Source of the DNA: a virus
Lineage: Duplodnaviria > Caudoviricetes
DNA length: 36,223 nucleotides
IMG/VR virus record: IMGVR_UViG_3300024287_000090
Span: 1 to 36,223 of that record
Direction: 5' to 3' (one strand)
Part shown: piece after piece, positions 849-36,223 of the stretch
Layout of the letters: every line of letters starts with the position of its first letter
Position numbering within the stretch: the stretch's first letter is position 1
The notes under the pieces: model-generated
What the model was told of the DNA's origin: nothing
The model's input: only the letters and a program-made list of their open reading frames with translations
Databases searched by the model: none
Made by a program: the position numbers and the translations under genes

Positions 849-1003
849 TTAAGTTCTCCTATTAAAATCTTCCCATGCATGATCCTTAACTCATCTAAGT
901 CACCAGTGTGCACATCATCATCACTGCCCTCTGACACAAGCATAATTACCTCTGTTTTCTCATCATATTTCTTCAATTCATCAATTAATTCTTTAACTGT
1001 CAT
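845..1003 (-). CDS. Small hypothetical protein (MTVKELIDEL... family), 52 aa
   Basis: Manual translation; ATGA overlaps with both neighbours; N-terminus shared with 35336-35533. Confidence 0.8.
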   Translation of the reverse strand: MTVKELIDELKKYDEKTEVIMLVSEGSDDDVHTGDLDELRIMHGKILIGELK

Positions 1004-4045: not shown

Positions 4046-4114
4046 GCCAGATTAGCTCAAATGGTAGAGTCCCGTAGTATTGGGAGGTTGATGGTTCGAG
4101 TCCATTATCTGGCA
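4046..4114 (+). tRNA. tRNA-like gene or pseudo-tRNA with aberrant anticodon arm (Thr-like acceptor stem)
   Basis: Acceptor GCCAGAT/ATCTGGC-A, D arm GCTC-AAATGGTA-GAGT, T arm GATGG-TTCGAGT-CCATT; anticodon arm about 4 nt short; followed by TCA, not CCA. Confidence 0.7.
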
Positions 4115-4142
4115 TCAGGAGTTACATAACAAGGAGATAAGC

Positions 4143-4367
4143 ATGAGCGTATGGGTTTTATTGTTATTTTTTAAGTCTGTTTCGGGTAAAAATGAAGAAG
4201 TAAGAGTCCATGAATTAGGTGTGTATACTGTTGAGGCGAAATGCAAAAATGACATGAACGAGATATGGAGCAGGCAAAAAGAAGAACGTGAATATTTGAT
4301 GAACAGAAATGTGGCTCCTGAAGAGTATCTGATACCGAGATGTATCCACACTGAAAGATTAAAATGA
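4143..4367 (+). CDS. Small hypothetical protein with hydrophobic N-terminus and two Cys
   Basis: Strong AGGAG RBS; MSVWVLLLFF...C...C. Confidence 0.75.
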   Translation: MSVWVLLLFFKSVSGKNEEVRVHELGVYTVEAKCKNDMNEIWSRQKEEREYLMNRNVAPEEYLIPRCIHTERLK

Positions 4368-21903: not shown

Positions 21904-22386
21904 TTAGATTGTATTTCCATTGGGTAAATATTTAACGATAATTGGGAACGTATGAGTTACGCTTGCAAAATCTAACTGCAGAGTCGTACAGCTAACGACA
22001 AATGCAATATTTCCACTTGCAGTAACTCCGGTATTTGAATTTCCAGCCAACGTCACAACTCCAGCTGTCATTTGCGACGAAATAATACCCAAAGTTGGCA
22101 CTTGAATATCAACGATTCTTTTTGCCGTTGAAGTAAATATCAATATTCCAACTGTGGATGGCGCTGCATTGGAATCGAGAGTTCCAAAGTTTGCACCCGG
22201 ATCATCTGGTGTTGGCTGTCCTGAAGTTTCAGCATAGCAAATCACTCCCCCTGGCATATTGGTTCCGGTAGTGATATTAGCCGCAACAACATTTCCATTG
22301 AGAGTAATCATGCAGTCAACTTGCCTAACCCCGGTTTTTAATGACTCGAGATAAAGGTTATTTGAATATTTAACTGTATTTGCCAT
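21904..22386 (-). CDS. Virion protein paralog 3 (possible capsid decoration)
   Basis: QPTPDDPGANFGTLDSN motif; start at ATG 22386 gives 160 aa like its paralogs. Confidence 0.7.
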   Translation of the reverse strand: MANTVKYSNNLYLESLKTGVRQVDCMITLNGNVVAANITTGTNMPGGVICYAETSGQPTPDDPGANFGTLDSNAAPSTVGILIFTSTAKRIVDIQVPTLGIISSQMTAGVVTLAGNSNTGVTASGNIAFVVSCTTLQLDFASVTHTFPIIVKYLPNGNTI

Positions 22387-22394
22387 AAATATTC

Positions 22395-22877
22395 TTAACT
22401 CCCACTCACAGGTAGGCATAAGTATTGAATGACTACATTGAAGCTATGATTGGTAATTGATTTGTCTATTTCCAGACCAGAACAAGTGATCACCAAGGCA
22501 ATGTTTCCGCTAGCAGTTATTCCAGTGCTGGATAATCCAACTTTGGTTACTGAACCAGTAAACATTGTTCCAGATGAAATGCTTTGAAACGGAACATAGG
22601 CATCAATTATTCGACCAGCATTTCCAGTGAGAGCAAGAATGCCAATCGTGCTAGGATCCGTATTCGAATCCAAAGTTCCAAAGTTTGCTCCACTGTCTGC
22701 CGGTGTAGGTTGAGCTCCATTTTCGACATAAGGGATTACTCCCGTAGTGTCAGTTCCGGCCTTTATGGATGGCTCATTGGTGTTACCGTAGATTGTGATA
22801 TAAGCCACGATTTCACGCACAGCCAGTCTGGATGATTCAAAACCAGAACTATTTACGAATTCAATTGCTTGTGACAT
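22395..22877 (-). CDS. Virion protein paralog 2 (possible capsid decoration)
   Basis: QPTPADSGANFGTLDSN motif; AGGAG RBS. Confidence 0.7.
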   Translation of the reverse strand: MSQAIEFVNSSGFESSRLAVREIVAYITIYGNTNEPSIKAGTDTTGVIPYVENGAQPTPADSGANFGTLDSNTDPSTIGILALTGNAGRIIDAYVPFQSISSGTMFTGSVTKVGLSSTGITASGNIALVITCSGLEIDKSITNHSFNVVIQYLCLPVSGS

Positions 22878-22886
22878 TGAATTCTC

Positions 22887-23384
22887 CTAGCTCACATTCT
22901 GAGGAGTACAAACATAACGAACAATGACGTTGAAAGTCGTTGTATTTGTATTCGCATCACCATCGAGACCAGTGCAGCTAATTACCGCTGCGACATTCCC
23001 GCTCGCTGTCACACCCGTACTGGATGCACCAGCCAACGTCACAACTCCAGCTGTCATAGCTCCGCTTGAGATTGTTTCAGTTGGAACGTTAATGCTAACG
23101 ATTCTTAAGGCATTTCCTGTGGCTACAGTCGCGCCAGTAAGTATTAATAGTCCCACAGTTGTAGGTGCTGCGTTGGAATCCAATGTCCCAAAGTTTGCTC
23201 CAGAATCAACAGGAGTCGGCTGGACGTTAGTCTCAGCATACATTTTGATTGCTGTAACATCAGAATAAATAACTATATTCGCAGGAGTTGTATTGGCCTT
23301 AAATGTAACTAAAGCATTACACTCCCTGATTCTAAGACGTGATGCTTCTAATGAGGCATCACCAAATTCGACATCTGCTGCCAT
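22887..23384 (-). CDS. Virion protein paralog 1 (possible capsid decoration)
   Basis: QPTPVDSGANFGTLDSN motif; AGGAG RBS. Confidence 0.7.
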   Translation of the reverse strand: MAADVEFGDASLEASRLRIRECNALVTFKANTTPANIVIYSDVTAIKMYAETNVQPTPVDSGANFGTLDSNAAPTTVGLLILTGATVATGNALRIVSINVPTETISSGAMTAGVVTLAGASSTGVTASGNVAAVISCTGLDGDANTNTTTFNVIVRYVCTPQNVS

Positions 23385-29635: not shown

Positions 29636-29835
29636 TTATCCTCCGGAGGAGATGGCAACGGCATCCAGTGGGTGACATTTTCTACGTTTGTCGCTGTCTC
29701 CGTACTATACCATGAATCTCTATTGTCGTCGTAATAGGCAACAATACACATTAACATATTTTCATATAATACTAGATTGTTGGCATAGTCCTTATCGCCA
29801 GGCAATCGCTCGCTGCATTTAATCCACTCGCTCAT
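29632..29835 (-). CDS. DUF551-family protein
   Basis: [12 protein letters not shown]...[11 protein letters not shown]; start at ATG 29835. Confidence 0.9.
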
Positions 29836-30079
29836 AGGTCGCCTCGAATATGTCTGGCTTGCATGGGTACACTTCATTCTTCACTCCCTTGATGACATAG
29901 TCTCCGCGCTCTGCCCGCATATCTCCCTCTAATGTTTTAATTATGGCATAATCAAGCTTACGCCACTCGCCATAATTAGTGGCGATGCAATCTGTTACTC
30001 TGTCCATGTACCAGTCTGGCATACAGTCTATTCCTAATCGGAAAGCTTCAATTACGATAGGTTTTTTCATATATCTCAT
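29819..30079 (-). CDS. Conserved phage protein (KPIVIEA...TLEG...GDYVIKGV...YPCKPDIF family)
   Basis: Widespread phage motif recognised by eye; likely start ATG 30079. Confidence 0.85.
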
Positions 30080-31765: not shown

Positions 31766-32135
31766 TGAGTGTCTCCGTAGAGCATCCTTCTAACATACGA
31801 GCAGCAGCTGAATCGTTTTTGTTATCTTCTTCGTGTCTATCTTTGTACTCATCAGGAGCAGCATTCTTCAGCATAAATATAAGAGTTGCATCTGATGGTC
31901 TTTTAGGGTCATCCCTTGCTAATAATGACTTTCTCTCCCACGCAGCGGCTTTTCCACACTTAGCTCTTTTTTTAGCTGCGGAAAACTCTGGATGTACCTT
32001 GGCCCATTCGTTTAATGTATCTACACAAACATCTATTGAATCAGCGAATGAATTAAATCCTAATCCACTCCTTAGACACTTCACTATCTCTTCGCAATAC
32101 TCTTCTTTATATAAAGTTGGTCGTCCACCTGGCAT
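31731..32135 (-). CDS. terS: Terminase small subunit
   Basis: MPGGRPTLYKEEYCE...TLNEWAKVHPEFSAA...TLIFMLKN, typical TerS HTH; first late gene. Confidence 0.85.
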   Translation of the reverse strand: MPGGRPTLYKEEYCEEIVKCLRSGLGFNSFADSIDVCVDTLNEWAKVHPEFSAAKKRAKCGKAAAWERKSLLARDDPKRPSDATLIFMLKNAAPDEYKDRHEEDNKNDSAAARMLEGCSTETLSAIARDLSSKS

Positions 32136-32144
32136 AATAATGTT

Positions 32145-32173
32145 ATTTTAGCGATATTAATCGAATTAGTCAA
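32145..32173 (-). promoter_or_regulatory. Promoter of terS/late operon
   Basis: TTGACT-17 nt-TAAAAT; ATG 9 nt downstream. Confidence 0.7.
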
Positions 32174-32177
32174 TAAA

Positions 32178-32204
32178 GCAAAAAGGCCCCGAGAGTAGGA
32201 GCCT
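32178..32204 (-). terminator. Rho-independent terminator
   Basis: AGGCTCC-TACTCTC-GGGGCCT-TTTTGCTTT. Confidence 0.8.
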
Positions 32205-32226
32205 AATTGCCAACAGGAGATAAGCA
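32178..32226 (-). ncRNA. Candidate small RNA B (about 50 nt) with anti-Shine-Dalgarno 5' end
   Basis: Extended -10 TGTG-T-TATAGT at 32242-32232, then GCTTATCTCCTG..., then intrinsic terminator; no ORF. Confidence 0.45.
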
Positions 32227-32246
32227 AATAAACTATAACACATATA

Positions 32247-32273
32247 AACTAAAAGAGCTACACCATGTAGCCC
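32247..32273 (-). terminator. Rho-independent terminator
   Basis: GGGCTACA-TGG-TGTAGCTC-TTTTAGTTT. Confidence 0.75.
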
Positions 32274-32315
32274 AATTAGTATCTTGATAACAAGATATCC
32301 TAAATATTTATCATC
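32250..32315 (-). ncRNA. Candidate small RNA A (about 65 nt, two hairpins)
   Basis: TTGAAT-17 nt-TATGGT promoter (32350-32322), TATCTTG/CAAGATA hairpin, then terminator. Confidence 0.35.
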
Positions 32316-32424
32316 AAAATTACCATAGCATTCTTAAAAAAATCATTCAATTAATTTTATGTGCTCAAACTTGATTATGCCACATAAGAGATCAAAGTAT
32401 TTTATTTAAAATGTAATTGATTAG

Positions 32425-32452
32425 TTGACAAATATCATGTTTGTGATATTAA
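32425..32452 (+). promoter_or_regulatory. Rightward early promoter with overlapping palindromic operator
   Basis: TTGACA-16 nt-TATTAA(T); AATATCAT-GTTT-GTGATATT in the spacer. Confidence 0.7.
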
Positions 32453-32497
32453 TTATTTCATGGTTTGGCGATAAAGCCATCCGAACAATGAGATAAA

Positions 32498-32665
32498 ATG
32501 AACTACGTAGAAGTAACAGACATCAAAACAGGCAATGGAGTTATATACACCATAGGCAACAGAAATTCTGCGCCTAAACGAGAGCTTAATCATCAGATAA
32601 GCTTATTGGTCAGAAAAGGCTCTAAAAAAGAAGACATAAGAGTTCAACTTAAAACATGCAAATAG
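32498..32665 (+). CDS. Small hypothetical protein, 55 aa
   Basis: Not in ORF track; MNYVEVTDIKTGNGVIYTIGNRNSAPKRELNHQISLLVRKGSKKEDIRVQLKTCK. Confidence 0.65.
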   Translation: MNYVEVTDIKTGNGVIYTIGNRNSAPKRELNHQISLLVRKGSKKEDIRVQLKTCK

Positions 32666-32673
32666 GAGATGAA

Positions 32674-32856
32674 ATGGACATCAAACAAACCCTGAGAGAT
32701 TCATGTGAGCGAGCCTACAATGACCTGGTTCAAGCATATAAGGACGGTAAACCATATACCGAACTAGATAGGTTATCAGACCTTATAGATACCAGAGAGA
32801 GGATTTATTACAATTACATTAACTGCATTTCACAGGAGACAAGCAATGGAAACTAA
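32674..32856 (+). CDS. Hypothetical protein
   Basis: AGGAG RBS before ATG 32674 (ORF track starts 32656). Confidence 0.7.
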   Translation: MDIKQTLRDSCERAYNDLVQAYKDGKPYTELDRLSDLIDTRERIYYNYINCISQETSNGN

Positions 32857-33217
32857 ATCAATACAAATAAACAAAGTAAGCCTCAAGGCAGACCCAACTC
32901 AGCTATTAGAATACGTGTTCTACCTGAAAGCTCAAATGAAGCTATTAGAACAGGACCTCAAGGACAATGAAGAACTGGTTATGGCCATCATCGAGTCGAA
33001 CAATGGTTCAGTGTCCATGGAGAGCGAAGAGCTATCAGGCAAAGCAACCGTATGTACGACTAAAACGTACATTTACTCCGATTCAGTAAGTGAGCTCATA
33101 GCCAAAAAGAAAGTACTTGAGACCAAGATTAAAGCTAAACAGATAATCGAAATTGCCAATGGAGCTGAGGTTAAATCAGTCAAAAAACACATTCGTTACA
33201 ATGTGGAGTTCAAATGA
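32846..33217 (+). CDS. Hypothetical phage protein (coiled coil plus beta segment)
   Basis: 123 aa, AGGAG RBS. Confidence 0.75.
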   Translation: METKSIQINKVSLKADPTQLLEYVFYLKAQMKLLEQDLKDNEELVMAIIESNNGSVSMESEELSGKATVCTTKTYIYSDSVSELIAKKKVLETKIKAKQIIEIANGAEVKSVKKHIRYNVEFK

Positions 33218-33459
33218 GCGAAAACATAATAAAATCAAGCAAAAAAAGACCAGTTCATAATGTAACCAAGGAATTAGAGAACTTAGCATATAGATTAGGG
33301 ATACTAATGGAACCTTCGCAGACCATATCTATACCGATGGATTTATTTGATAGACTTCAAAAAGAGCAAGGAGAGCCATTCAGGGATGCATACGTATTCA
33401 AAACGAACAGAACCATTCTTACCGTAACCAGAGACCATGAGTTAATACACGGAGCTTAA
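33214..33459 (+). CDS. Hypothetical protein
   Basis: 81 aa; ATGA overlap. Confidence 0.7.
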   Translation: MSENIIKSSKKRPVHNVTKELENLAYRLGILMEPSQTISIPMDLFDRLQKEQGEPFRDAYVFKTNRTILTVTRDHELIHGA

Positions 33460-33657
33460 ATGAAACCATTAATATTATCTATTTTTATTCTTAATTGTAC
33501 GAATATAAAAGAAAACAAAATACATGTCATATGTGACACCTACAACTACATGTACGAAGCAGATGTTGAATCTATCAGAAGAGATGGCAAGTACTGGATA
33601 ATCGTAGTCGACAGTAAAACATCCATCCGTATCCAAGGAGACTGCATTGAAAAATAA
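33460..33657 (+). CDS. Putative small lipoprotein
   Basis: MKPLILSIFILNC: short signal followed by Cys (non-canonical lipobox); GGAG RBS. Confidence 0.55.
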   Translation: MKPLILSIFILNCTNIKENKIHVICDTYNYMYEADVESIRRDGKYWIIVVDSKTSIRIQGDCIEK

Positions 33658-33829
33658 AAAAAATAAAATCATTCAAATGAGAATGACTGAATCCATGGTT
33701 ATCTACCTCGATAGTCTTAACCTCATGTCTAGGTCAGAAGCCATAAGGCTAATAATCGAAGAGCATAGGTTAATAGAAGGTATGTCTTTGAAATCATTAG
33801 TAAAGTATTATTCTTCAAAAAAAGAATAG
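33647..33829 (+). CDS. Ribbon-helix-helix (CopG/Arc-like) DNA-binding protein
   Basis: IIQMRMTESMVIYLD...SRSEAIRLII; AGGAG RBS before TTG. Confidence 0.75.
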   Translation: MKNKKNKIIQMRMTESMVIYLDSLNLMSRSEAIRLIIEEHRLIEGMSLKSLVKYYSSKKE

Positions 33830-34090
33830 ACTCCCATCCTTACATCATACTCTGTGCTCTGTTTTTTTTTATTTTTATTTGTTTGTTTTATCGAAGAGCA
33901 AGAGTAAGTTAATACTTGATACAATCTAATAGGTCTTAATTAACAACCAAGATCAGTGGTATGCATAATGTACCTTACTAATATTCTTAGAAGTATCATA
34001 TTTTAAAGAAAAAAAAAAAAGTAAAATTAAAAAAACTTAAAATTTATCGAAAAGCTTGCAATTTTATATTTTAGGGGTAATGAGAATAAA

Positions 34091-34110
34091 TGTCACGCAT
34101 GTGATATTAT
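34091..34110 (+). promoter_or_regulatory. Extended -10 promoter with palindromic operator
   Basis: TGTCAC-GCAT-GTGATA overlapping TGTG-A-TATTAT. Confidence 0.6.
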
Positions 34111-34143
34111 GTCGCAGTGAACAACTTATTATGGGGAAGATGA

Positions 34144-34964: not shown

Positions 34965-34983
34965 AATTATCTCCTTAAGACTA

Positions 34984-35011
34984 ATAATATCACAAAAGTG
35001 ATACTCGTCAA
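34984..35011 (-). promoter_or_regulatory. Promoter with perfect palindromic operator
   Basis: TTGACG-16 nt-TATTAT; TATCAC-N4-GTGATA at 34988-35003. Confidence 0.75.
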
Positions 35012-35335: not shown

Positions 35336-35533
35336 TTAATTGTATATTTTTATATTAACGCATTTAATTTCTTTACGCATTTCGGTTTTCTGTGCTGAAT
35401 AATTAATGGATTCAATGTCGTATACATAAGACGGTTCATTAAATTCGTGATATCCAGAACTAGATGCCAAAACCATTACTTCGTTGTTACCATTGTACTT
35501 ACTGAGTTCCTCAATTAATTCTTTAACTGTCAT
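35336..35533 (-). CDS. Small hypothetical protein (MTVKELIEEL... family)
   Basis: Start at ATG 35533 by ATGA overlap and paralogy with 845-1003. Confidence 0.8.
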   Translation of the reverse strand: MTVKELIEELSKYNGNNEVMVLASSSGYHEFNEPSYVYDIESINYSAQKTEMRKEIKCVNIKIYN

Positions 35534-35934
35534 TCCGGGATCTCCATCCATTCTTGCCATGAGTTAAAATCAATCTCGGTAATTCCTGGAATATTGTTGT
35601 AACCAATCATTTCATAGCAATAGATACCTCTAATCTTGCCGTTGCCTCTTACGATAAAATATGATCCTAACTTCGGTTTTATGCTTGTTGACTTCCATGG
35701 TGATTTCTTCACCTTCTTCTTCGGTGGCTTAGGCATTGGACGCCATTGGATTCCTATCGCTTCGTATGGAAATTTGCAAAACCTATTGCCAAATATCTCC
35801 ATAATTCTATCGTCACGACATCTCTCCCACCAACAGGACTGAAATGATTTTTTACTATTATTGGCGATGAAATCTTTTTGCTCAGGTGGCCACGTGCTCT
35901 CATCTTCTGTTATTGTTGTCCATTTTATTTTCAT
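35530..35934 (-). CDS. Hypothetical protein with two DUF551-like units
   Basis: Paralog of 1000-1494 with identical termini. Confidence 0.75.
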   Translation of the reverse strand: MKIKWTTITEDESTWPPEQKDFIANNSKKSFQSCWWERCRDDRIMEIFGNRFCKFPYEAIGIQWRPMPKPPKKKVKKSPWKSTSIKPKLGSYFIVRGNGKIRGIYCYEMIGYNNIPGITEIDFNSWQEWMEIPE

Positions 35935-36223
35935 GCGTTCACCATGAAACTCTGTTTCGATAATTCCTCTGTCAGATTCTTAATCCAGTCTCGTGCTTCT
36001 TTTGTCTTAACCTTGTCAATCAACTCAGCCAATCCCTTAAATGCCCTATCTGTTTGCTCTTTGGTGAGTTCACAAATTCGTAGGCCATTGAATTCTGCAA
36101 GTTCCGGGAACGTATCGCAGAATATATCAGGTATGTAGTCAGGACTATCTGTAATAGGTGGCAAAGAGATCTTAGGCTTGACTCCTGGCTTCGGTATCTC
36201 TGTTTTGGGTATAACAACCACAA
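35931..36223 (-). CDS. bet: C-terminal part of Bet recombinase (continues from 1-848)
   Basis: Same reading frame across the circular join. Confidence 0.85.
   Translation of the reverse strand, partial: VVVIPKTEIPKPGVKPKISLPPITDSPDYIPDIFCDTFPELAEFNGLRICELTKEQTDRAFKGLAELIDKVKTKEARDWIKNLTEELSKQSFMVNA
36088..36213. repeat. Terminal direct repeat, right copy
   Basis: Identical to 1-126. Confidence 0.95.

Follow-up and report, generated by a model that had tools for sequence, protein, structure and literature searches.

A predicted small RNA upstream of terS in an uncultured phage, with a 5' seed complementary to ribosome-binding sites of the phage's own genes

The intergenic DNA directly upstream of terS in an uncultured phage raises the question of whether it encodes a small regulatory RNA and, if so, with whose messages that RNA would pair. 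An earlier note, made from the letters alone, had read it as an sRNA whose 5' end is antisense to ribosome-binding sites (RBSs) of the phage's own genes. The window, that is, the whole stretch of 36,223 nt that was analysed, is a circular genome in which positions 36088-36222 repeat 1-135. According to a scan of 53 ORFs with PHROGs-based families, the genes for packaging and for the virion are read leftward, beginning with terS at 32135, and the rest of the genome carries small non-structural genes together with a RecT-like annealase, an HTH protein, a dUTPase and an SSB. No integrase and no antirepressor was matched among these 53 ORFs, and a search of cultured phages for a close relative returned chance matches only. 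Some peculiarities of the gene layout are recorded here in their own right. Upstream of the major capsid gene, three paralogues of about 165 codons stand in tandem (21904-23384); a distant relative (G001) has a single homologue. Two small-gene pairs with duplicated N-termini (845-1494 and 35336-35934) flank the RecT-like gene. An AT-rich non-coding stretch with long A/T runs (33830-34140), ahead of gene 34144, is a candidate replication origin.

On the minus strand upstream of terS, a promoter and a terminator form a unit that is real as a sequence element; the RNA itself is predicted. Its parts are as follows.

32178..32225, minus strand: predicted sRNA of about 46-50 nt (about 48), +1 at G32225 and 3' end at about 32176-32180, both ends predicted
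32232..32242, minus strand: extended -10 promoter TGTG-T-TATAGT with a poor -35, unchanged in the listed differences of relatives
32212..32225, minus strand: 14-nt single-stranded 5' seed with the anti-SD core UCUCCU, from folding and relatives
32184..32204, minus strand: intrinsic terminator stem-loop with a U-rich tail, whose outer stem can extend to 32211-32177

From the promoter motif and the terminator we infer transcription, and from the usual spacing rule (6-nt spacing, 7 nt after the -10) a start at G32225. The consensus promoter scanner omits this promoter because its -35 position is poor. The terminator stem has 7 bp, 5 of them G-C, and a loop of 7 nt; the strong-terminator scan of the genome found three, two of which are this terminator and a hairpin upstream of the unit. 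The RNA folds better than expected (z = -3.5 to -3.8; 0/200 shuffles equally good), and all 14 positions of the seed are unpaired in the predicted fold, each with a probability of at least 0.93. Thus the extended -10 and the strong terminator that the earlier note had seen are present, at 32242-32232 and 32204-32184 respectively. Its description of the unit as 50 nt long and ORF-less holds in practice rather than literally: a 47-codon TTG ORF (32227-32084) runs across the same DNA, yet its start codon precedes the predicted +1, it passes the terminator and it is shifted out of frame by two 1-nt deletions in one relative. The plus strand over 32178-32225 has no gene or gene start. Rfam recognised no family at the gathering threshold, the best score over 31900-32600 being STnc70 with 23.5 bits versus 40. 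By its motifs and conservation, the unit has the layout of a trans-acting bacterial-type sRNA, with a promoter of its own, an unpaired seed, an intrinsic terminator and no ORF.

Two further elements on the same strand frame the unit.

32248..32280, core 32273-32255, minus strand: upstream terminator-like hairpin; the conserved island of the relatives stops at 32281
32145..32173, minus strand: separate sigma-70-type promoter for terS, 10/12; relatives align to 32147

The upstream hairpin likely ends leftward early transcription and insulates the sRNA unit. terS begins about 40 nt past the sRNA terminator in the same direction. With a +1 at 32138, transcription from its own promoter would start 3 nt from the ATG; terS looks near-leaderless, the sole gene that does.

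A genome scan with the seed on both strands pointed to the phage's own RBSs. After its own template, the best sites were the RBSs of genes 4143 and 32846, followed by a third site at -17.2 away from any start. The sites at gene starts that deserve attention are given below, with energies in kcal/mol.

4128..4142, plus strand: target 1, RBS of gene 4143 (74 aa); duplex -19.8, with accessibility -15.1
32832..32844, plus strand: target 2, RBS of gene 32846 (123 aa); duplex -18.8, with accessibility -15.5
32661..32672, plus strand: target 3, RBS of a 60-aa gene starting at 32674; duplex -15.2, with accessibility -14.1
855..863, minus strand: weaker candidate target at the RBS of the RecT/Bet-like annealase, which starts at 848; 9 pairs in a row, with accessibility -12.7
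34967..34975, minus strand: match at gene 34964; duplex -12.4, with accessibility -10.7, SD-level pairing

At target 1, 11 contiguous pairs are followed by a 1-nt bulge and 4 more pairs, reaching the base that precedes the ATG. At target 2, 12/13 positions pair, covering the SD and the spacer up to two bases before the start codon; this site lies inside the last codons of gene 32674. Target 3 has 12 contiguous pairs, 2 of them G-U. The underlying identities had been noticed before, 12 nt with the RBS of gene 4143 and 14/15 with that of gene 32846, and we found both, at 4132-4143 and 32832-32846. The claim that the 5' end is antisense to them needs trimming: with a start at G32225, the RNA holds 11/12 of the matching bases for 4143 and 12/13 for 32846. 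The proposed third partner fared less well. A 9-nt match at the RBS of gene 34964 exists (34975-34967), but it is no special target; it represents ordinary SD similarity, because -12.4 lies within one standard deviation of foreign AGGAG starts. Gene 32674, which is in the same operon as 32846, appears from the sequence to be the better third target. The proteins of 4143 and 32846 belong to phage families without a name, and an assignment of gene 4143 to DUF1482 was rejected (score only 0.75). Directly upstream of gene 4143, at 4046-4114, there is a tRNA-like element that Rfam scores at 44.7 bits and ARAGORN misses; its anticodon arm is apparently shortened, and a role in processing or as a decoy is conceivable.

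Because pairing with SD sites is expected of every anti-SD sequence, our controls retained the anti-SD core. The most informative quantity was the energy of the second-best start. A value of -18.8 or lower was reached in 0/400 and 0/400 flank shuffles (64 starts), by 0/96 seeds built from real foreign AGGAG RBSs of other loci, and by 4/2500 random-flank seeds, which were run on 53 starts containing GGA or GAG. A single target as good as the best one was less rare (1/400 and 5/400 shuffles; 21/2500 random-flank seeds). Turning the comparison around, we paired the seed with foreign AGGAG starts (n = 122), which gave a mean energy of -10.5 with a standard deviation of 2.0. None of the 122 reached -17, versus 2/10 of the phage's own AGGAG starts at -18.8 or lower (Fisher p = 0.005). 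Four of the 122 foreign starts reached -15, a tail that overlaps the third and fourth targets (-15), so that only two targets stand out from the nulls. For these two, 4143 and 32846, the matches exceed general SD similarity, since controls that keep the core rarely or never equal them; the shuffled-control comparison of seed against phage starts that the earlier note had proposed as a check came out in favour of both.

The preference also has a direction. When 64 starts were ranked with accessibility included, the top four were all non-structural (32846, 4143, 32674 and the RecT-like gene), and the 6 non-structural AGGAG starts bound better than the 4 late ones (exact Mann-Whitney p = 0.019), the set of starts and the early and late labels being our own choice. 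The four late AGGAG genes ranged from -9.2 to -5.1 with accessibility, and before accessibility the duplex of late gene 10422 (-15.2) was at the level of the third and fourth targets. These comparisons bear on an alternative in which a genuine, PreS- or VpdS-like RNA acts mainly on host mRNAs, the two phage matches being secondary or incidental. Phage sRNAs in print often act on the host, in the accessible parts of PMC12197685 and 10.1101/2024.10.31.621285, and, with thousands of host starts on offer, an anti-SD seed would be expected to find strong partners. On the other hand, two near-perfect matches among just 64 phage starts exceed the nulls, and this excess indicates selection on the phage's own RBSs. 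We therefore regard a mainly host-directed RNA as improbable.

We then asked whether the unit is conserved. Two related contigs from one soil metagenome (run X2) cover it and keep 32147-32281. Past 32281, at the border of the upstream hairpin, neither aligns any longer, and one of the two diverges below 32147 as well, where 142 extra bases stand ahead of terS. In the predicted transcript there are five listed differences, at 32193, 32195 and 32196 plus 1-nt deletions at 32191 and 32197, all in the terminator loop. Outside the RNA, the differences fall at 32228 and 32230 (positions -3 and -5) and at 32245. Neither of the two contigs has a listed difference in the seed, the stem arms or the -10; differences near the ends of pieces escape listing (3/6 in one contig, 4/7 in the other), and the seed lies more than 50 bases from any end. 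Seed and 5' arm together (28 nt) are free of listed changes, versus 11/116 in terS on the same contig. Measured against coding divergence, this conservation has p of about 0.06, weak on its own, for the 14 seed nt in two contigs and about 0.004 for the 28 nt. The changes at -3 and -5 would mark the limit of constraint, a pattern that fits a functional RNA with its start at G32225 and does not fit a decaying RBS on the plus strand. All three copies have an identical seed, and the target-site differences in the X2 relatives lie mostly too close to piece ends for listing.

The relatives differ in other ways too. The loose end of the 142-base insert (32143-32147) consists of a -10, six bases, an ATG and an open frame; from this arrangement, the insert is a probable leaderless inserted gene. 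Around 32455-32659 and 32455-32832, relatives are without gene 32498 or replace it, and one perhaps also 32674. Alignment with them picks up again at RBS sites or immediately ahead of these (32832-32834), a cassette-like gain and loss of early genes. The alignment from another run (X3) spans only 32255-32548, outside the seed, and a further run (X1) yielded no coverage.

Beyond these contigs, the unit is hard to trace. The distant relative G001 (terL 58%) has no sRNA unit. Proteins P0002, P0003 and P0005 are evidence of close relatives on long contigs. The exact unit pattern had 0 matches in viral contigs, and the promoter-plus-stem pattern had 2 matches in metagenomes, the phage's own contig and a chance bacterial one (L012). 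Among the 35 viral matches to the promoter-plus-seed pattern, the seed-hairpin-U-tract layout was absent by our reading of the folds and protein homology was lacking, and none of the 3 viral and 18 genome matches to the terminator pattern was homologous. Gene 32846 was in 0/109 stretches of viral contigs and terL in 0/25 GTDB genomes; loci sharing only terS were remote, and the upstream DNA of 9 of them has nothing similar.

Another view of the locus gives a role to the two terminators alone, which would insulate the early operons from the late ones; the AGGAG on the plus strand would be what is left of a lost gene's RBS, or would resemble an SD by chance. The double terminator does stand at the early/late boundary, the -35 of the sRNA promoter is poor, and phage genes are gained and lost at RBS boundaries, as where the relatives' alignments resume at 32832-32834. 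Nevertheless, the plus strand has AAA instead of an ATG in register and then an immediate stop. The -10 and the seed between the terminators are conserved while the loop, positions -3 and -5 and the flank vary, and seeds made from real RBSs gave two such partners in 0/96 cases. The remnant RBS, which the earlier note had raised against its own proposal, fails for these reasons: no start codon in register, an immediate stop, and a unit conserved unlike its flank. Overall, we think this view quite unlikely.

The position of the unit, directly upstream of terS and co-directional with it, suggests another alternative, a late-operon leader like lambda pR'-6S-tR', in which an antiterminator extends transcription into terS and the seed match is a side effect. 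Lambda 6S, too, is a short terminated transcript (predicted here) that heads the late region, in the same position and antiterminated by Q, as far as the available part of 10.1101/2024.10.31.621285 describes it. By contrast, a second promoter (10/12, 32173-32145) follows the terminator here, and in one relative 142 extra bases separate it from terS. The 53 ORFs scanned included no match to an antiterminator (Q-type) family and no recognisable Q-like gene, which is weak evidence, many of them being unannotated. A 6S-like leader would also leave the RBS matches unexplained. Such a leader can coexist with a trans-acting sRNA; as the explanation of the locus, we consider it to have only a slim chance.

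The reading that we favour, with fair but not high confidence, is that the unit encodes a trans-acting sRNA repressing a few of the phage's own genes. It retains part of the earlier proposal of an anti-SD sRNA: the stand-alone unit, the exposed seed, the partners among the phage's own non-structural RBSs and the conservation stand, and the 34964 target does not. In bacteria, seed-type sRNAs that pair with the SD block 30S entry. Host RNA polymerase would make the RNA of about 48 nt with a free 5' seed, and in the cell the seed is predicted to pair over the SD and spacer of 32846, 4143 and probably 32674. Covered in this way, these sites would be closed to 30S entry and ribosomes would be kept off. 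The bases on either side of the anti-SD core would confer the specificity (about -19 versus about -10 kcal/mol for an average AGGAG start), and therefore ordinary SD-led late genes would escape. This replaces the idea that leaderless genes escape: only terS looks near-leaderless, and the late AGGAG genes merely have no extended match. Ribosomes translating the frame in which target 2 is embedded could dislodge the RNA there. Since that site is in the last codons of 32674, silencing of 32674 would stop ribosomes from clearing the 32846 site.

The operon with two of the targets offers a further hint about how the RNA might act.

32425..32451, plus strand: operon promoter (targets 2 and 3) with an overlapping TATCA-N6-TGATA palindrome

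This palindrome, found at 32433-32448, 34091-34106 and 34988-35003, overlaps three promoter-like sites, has weaker half-sites at 2110-2180 and is absent from the sRNA promoter. Judged from its placement, it is a probable repressor operator. (Gene 33647 as a ribbon-helix-helix protein, a guess from likeness, was rejected, a single-sequence model giving all helix.) Since the sRNA promoter has no palindrome of the 32498-33829 operon, a second, RNA-level layer may exist: a protein repressor would shut the promoter of that operon and the sRNA would silence leftover or leaky mRNA. The distribution of the palindrome thus suggests a double shut-off by repressor plus RNA. That the silencing occurs at the early-to-late switch is a guess; it might fall late in infection or in a carrier state.

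Several small phage RNAs are similar in part. P22 sar, lambda OOP and aQ lower phage gene expression by pairing, in the account given by the accessible part of PMC12197685; they overlap their targets in cis, whereas the partners predicted here are 0.45, 0.6 and 8 kb off on the circle. VpdS, PreS (LPR1) and 24B_1 are short phage RNAs acting in trans with seed pairing, of which VpdS affects phage and host mRNAs and 24B_1 is a proposed repressor of d_ant (available portions of PMC12197685 and 10.1101/2024.10.31.621285). By contrast with these Hfq-linked and largely host-directed RNAs, this one has the phage's own RBSs as its likelier partners on the present evidence. In the main texts of the open-access literature we found no stand-alone multi-target anti-RBS phage sRNA; a supplement of PMC12197685, which tabulates 38 phage sRNAs yet to be described, could affect how new this RNA is. 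The nearest precedent is C4 of P1/P7 (RF01695), which acts in trans on the phage's own mRNA, partly covers RBSs and draws specificity from flanking bases (accessible part of PMC5320573). C4 is about 77 nt long with three stem-loops, is cut by RNase P from a precursor and pairs through two loops, a' and b'; its target is an antirepressor operon, a function matched by none of the 53 ORFs scanned here. Here, on the other hand, a primary RNA of about 48 nt is predicted, with one 5' seed and one terminator, and the RBSs are in separate operons. The C4 covariance model gave 0 matches in the genome at E <= 10 and none at the gathering score. The sRNA is thus predicted to work like P1 C4 and, by model and structure, is not a member of the C4 family.

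The start-associated sequences (SAS) of Cluster K mycobacteriophages are a possible analogue. An SAS is an extended RBS common to non-structural genes, whose role is left open in the accessible parts of PMC3203893, PMC7302621, PMC11373665 and PMC12699233; four phages have one reversed copy away from gene starts (accessible part of PMC3203893). A hairpin can carry the reversed copy.

29835..29920 of the Anaya locus (L093): conserved Cluster K hairpin, also in L094 and L097-L104

In Anaya and Angelica, the reversed SAS is fully unpaired in the loop of this hairpin, after a terminator and ahead of the last genes of the genome, and the region is common to 165 records. A hypothetical CDS is annotated over the hairpin in Angelica and others. 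Among 9 aligned phages, 4 have an exact anti-SAS loop, 4 a variant with central mismatches and 1 an unrelated loop; in the stretches of Pixie and TM4 that were examined, there was no reversed copy. Where the loop differs, in Tierra and SirPhilip, the SAS is unchanged (2/2 tested; no covariation). The loop varies while the SAS stays, and therefore the analogy is suggestive and no proof. The two systems also differ in design, with 10-19 near-identical copies and display in a loop for the SAS versus 2-3 loose copies and a 5' seed here. At least ten near-identical extended RBS copies define the SAS pattern, compared with two close copies among 10 AGGAG starts in our phage. The one reversed non-start copy of that pattern is found here, at 32213-32225, reversed with respect to its own promoter and terminator. 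SASs have been proposed as possible protein or RNA sites (accessible part of PMC3203893), and one could imagine that the RBS extension shared here is an SAS-like protein-binding tag, with the 32215 copy serving as a decoy in the sense direction, as RNA or DNA. The promoter and the terminator face the opposite way, and on the plus strand a U-tract is absent and promoter matches are weak, which makes a decoy very improbable.

A bolder and less probable reading takes the private SD extensions as barcodes, a set of genes in separate operons being silenced by one tiny RNA whose start coincides exactly with the complement of the barcode. On this reading, which we advance only tentatively, the unit would be among the smallest forms of a widespread unpublished strategy, for which a 14-nt seed on a terminator would suffice and which would also explain the SAS of actinophages. 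The finding bears on the published open question of the role of shared extended RBS motifs, with a mixed outcome when that link was checked. A 48-nt RNA choosing its own RBSs through the bases that flank the SD would be about the smallest possible design for a regulator. The timing of phage genes is mostly ascribed to transcription factors, and such an sRNA would add an RNA layer across operons.
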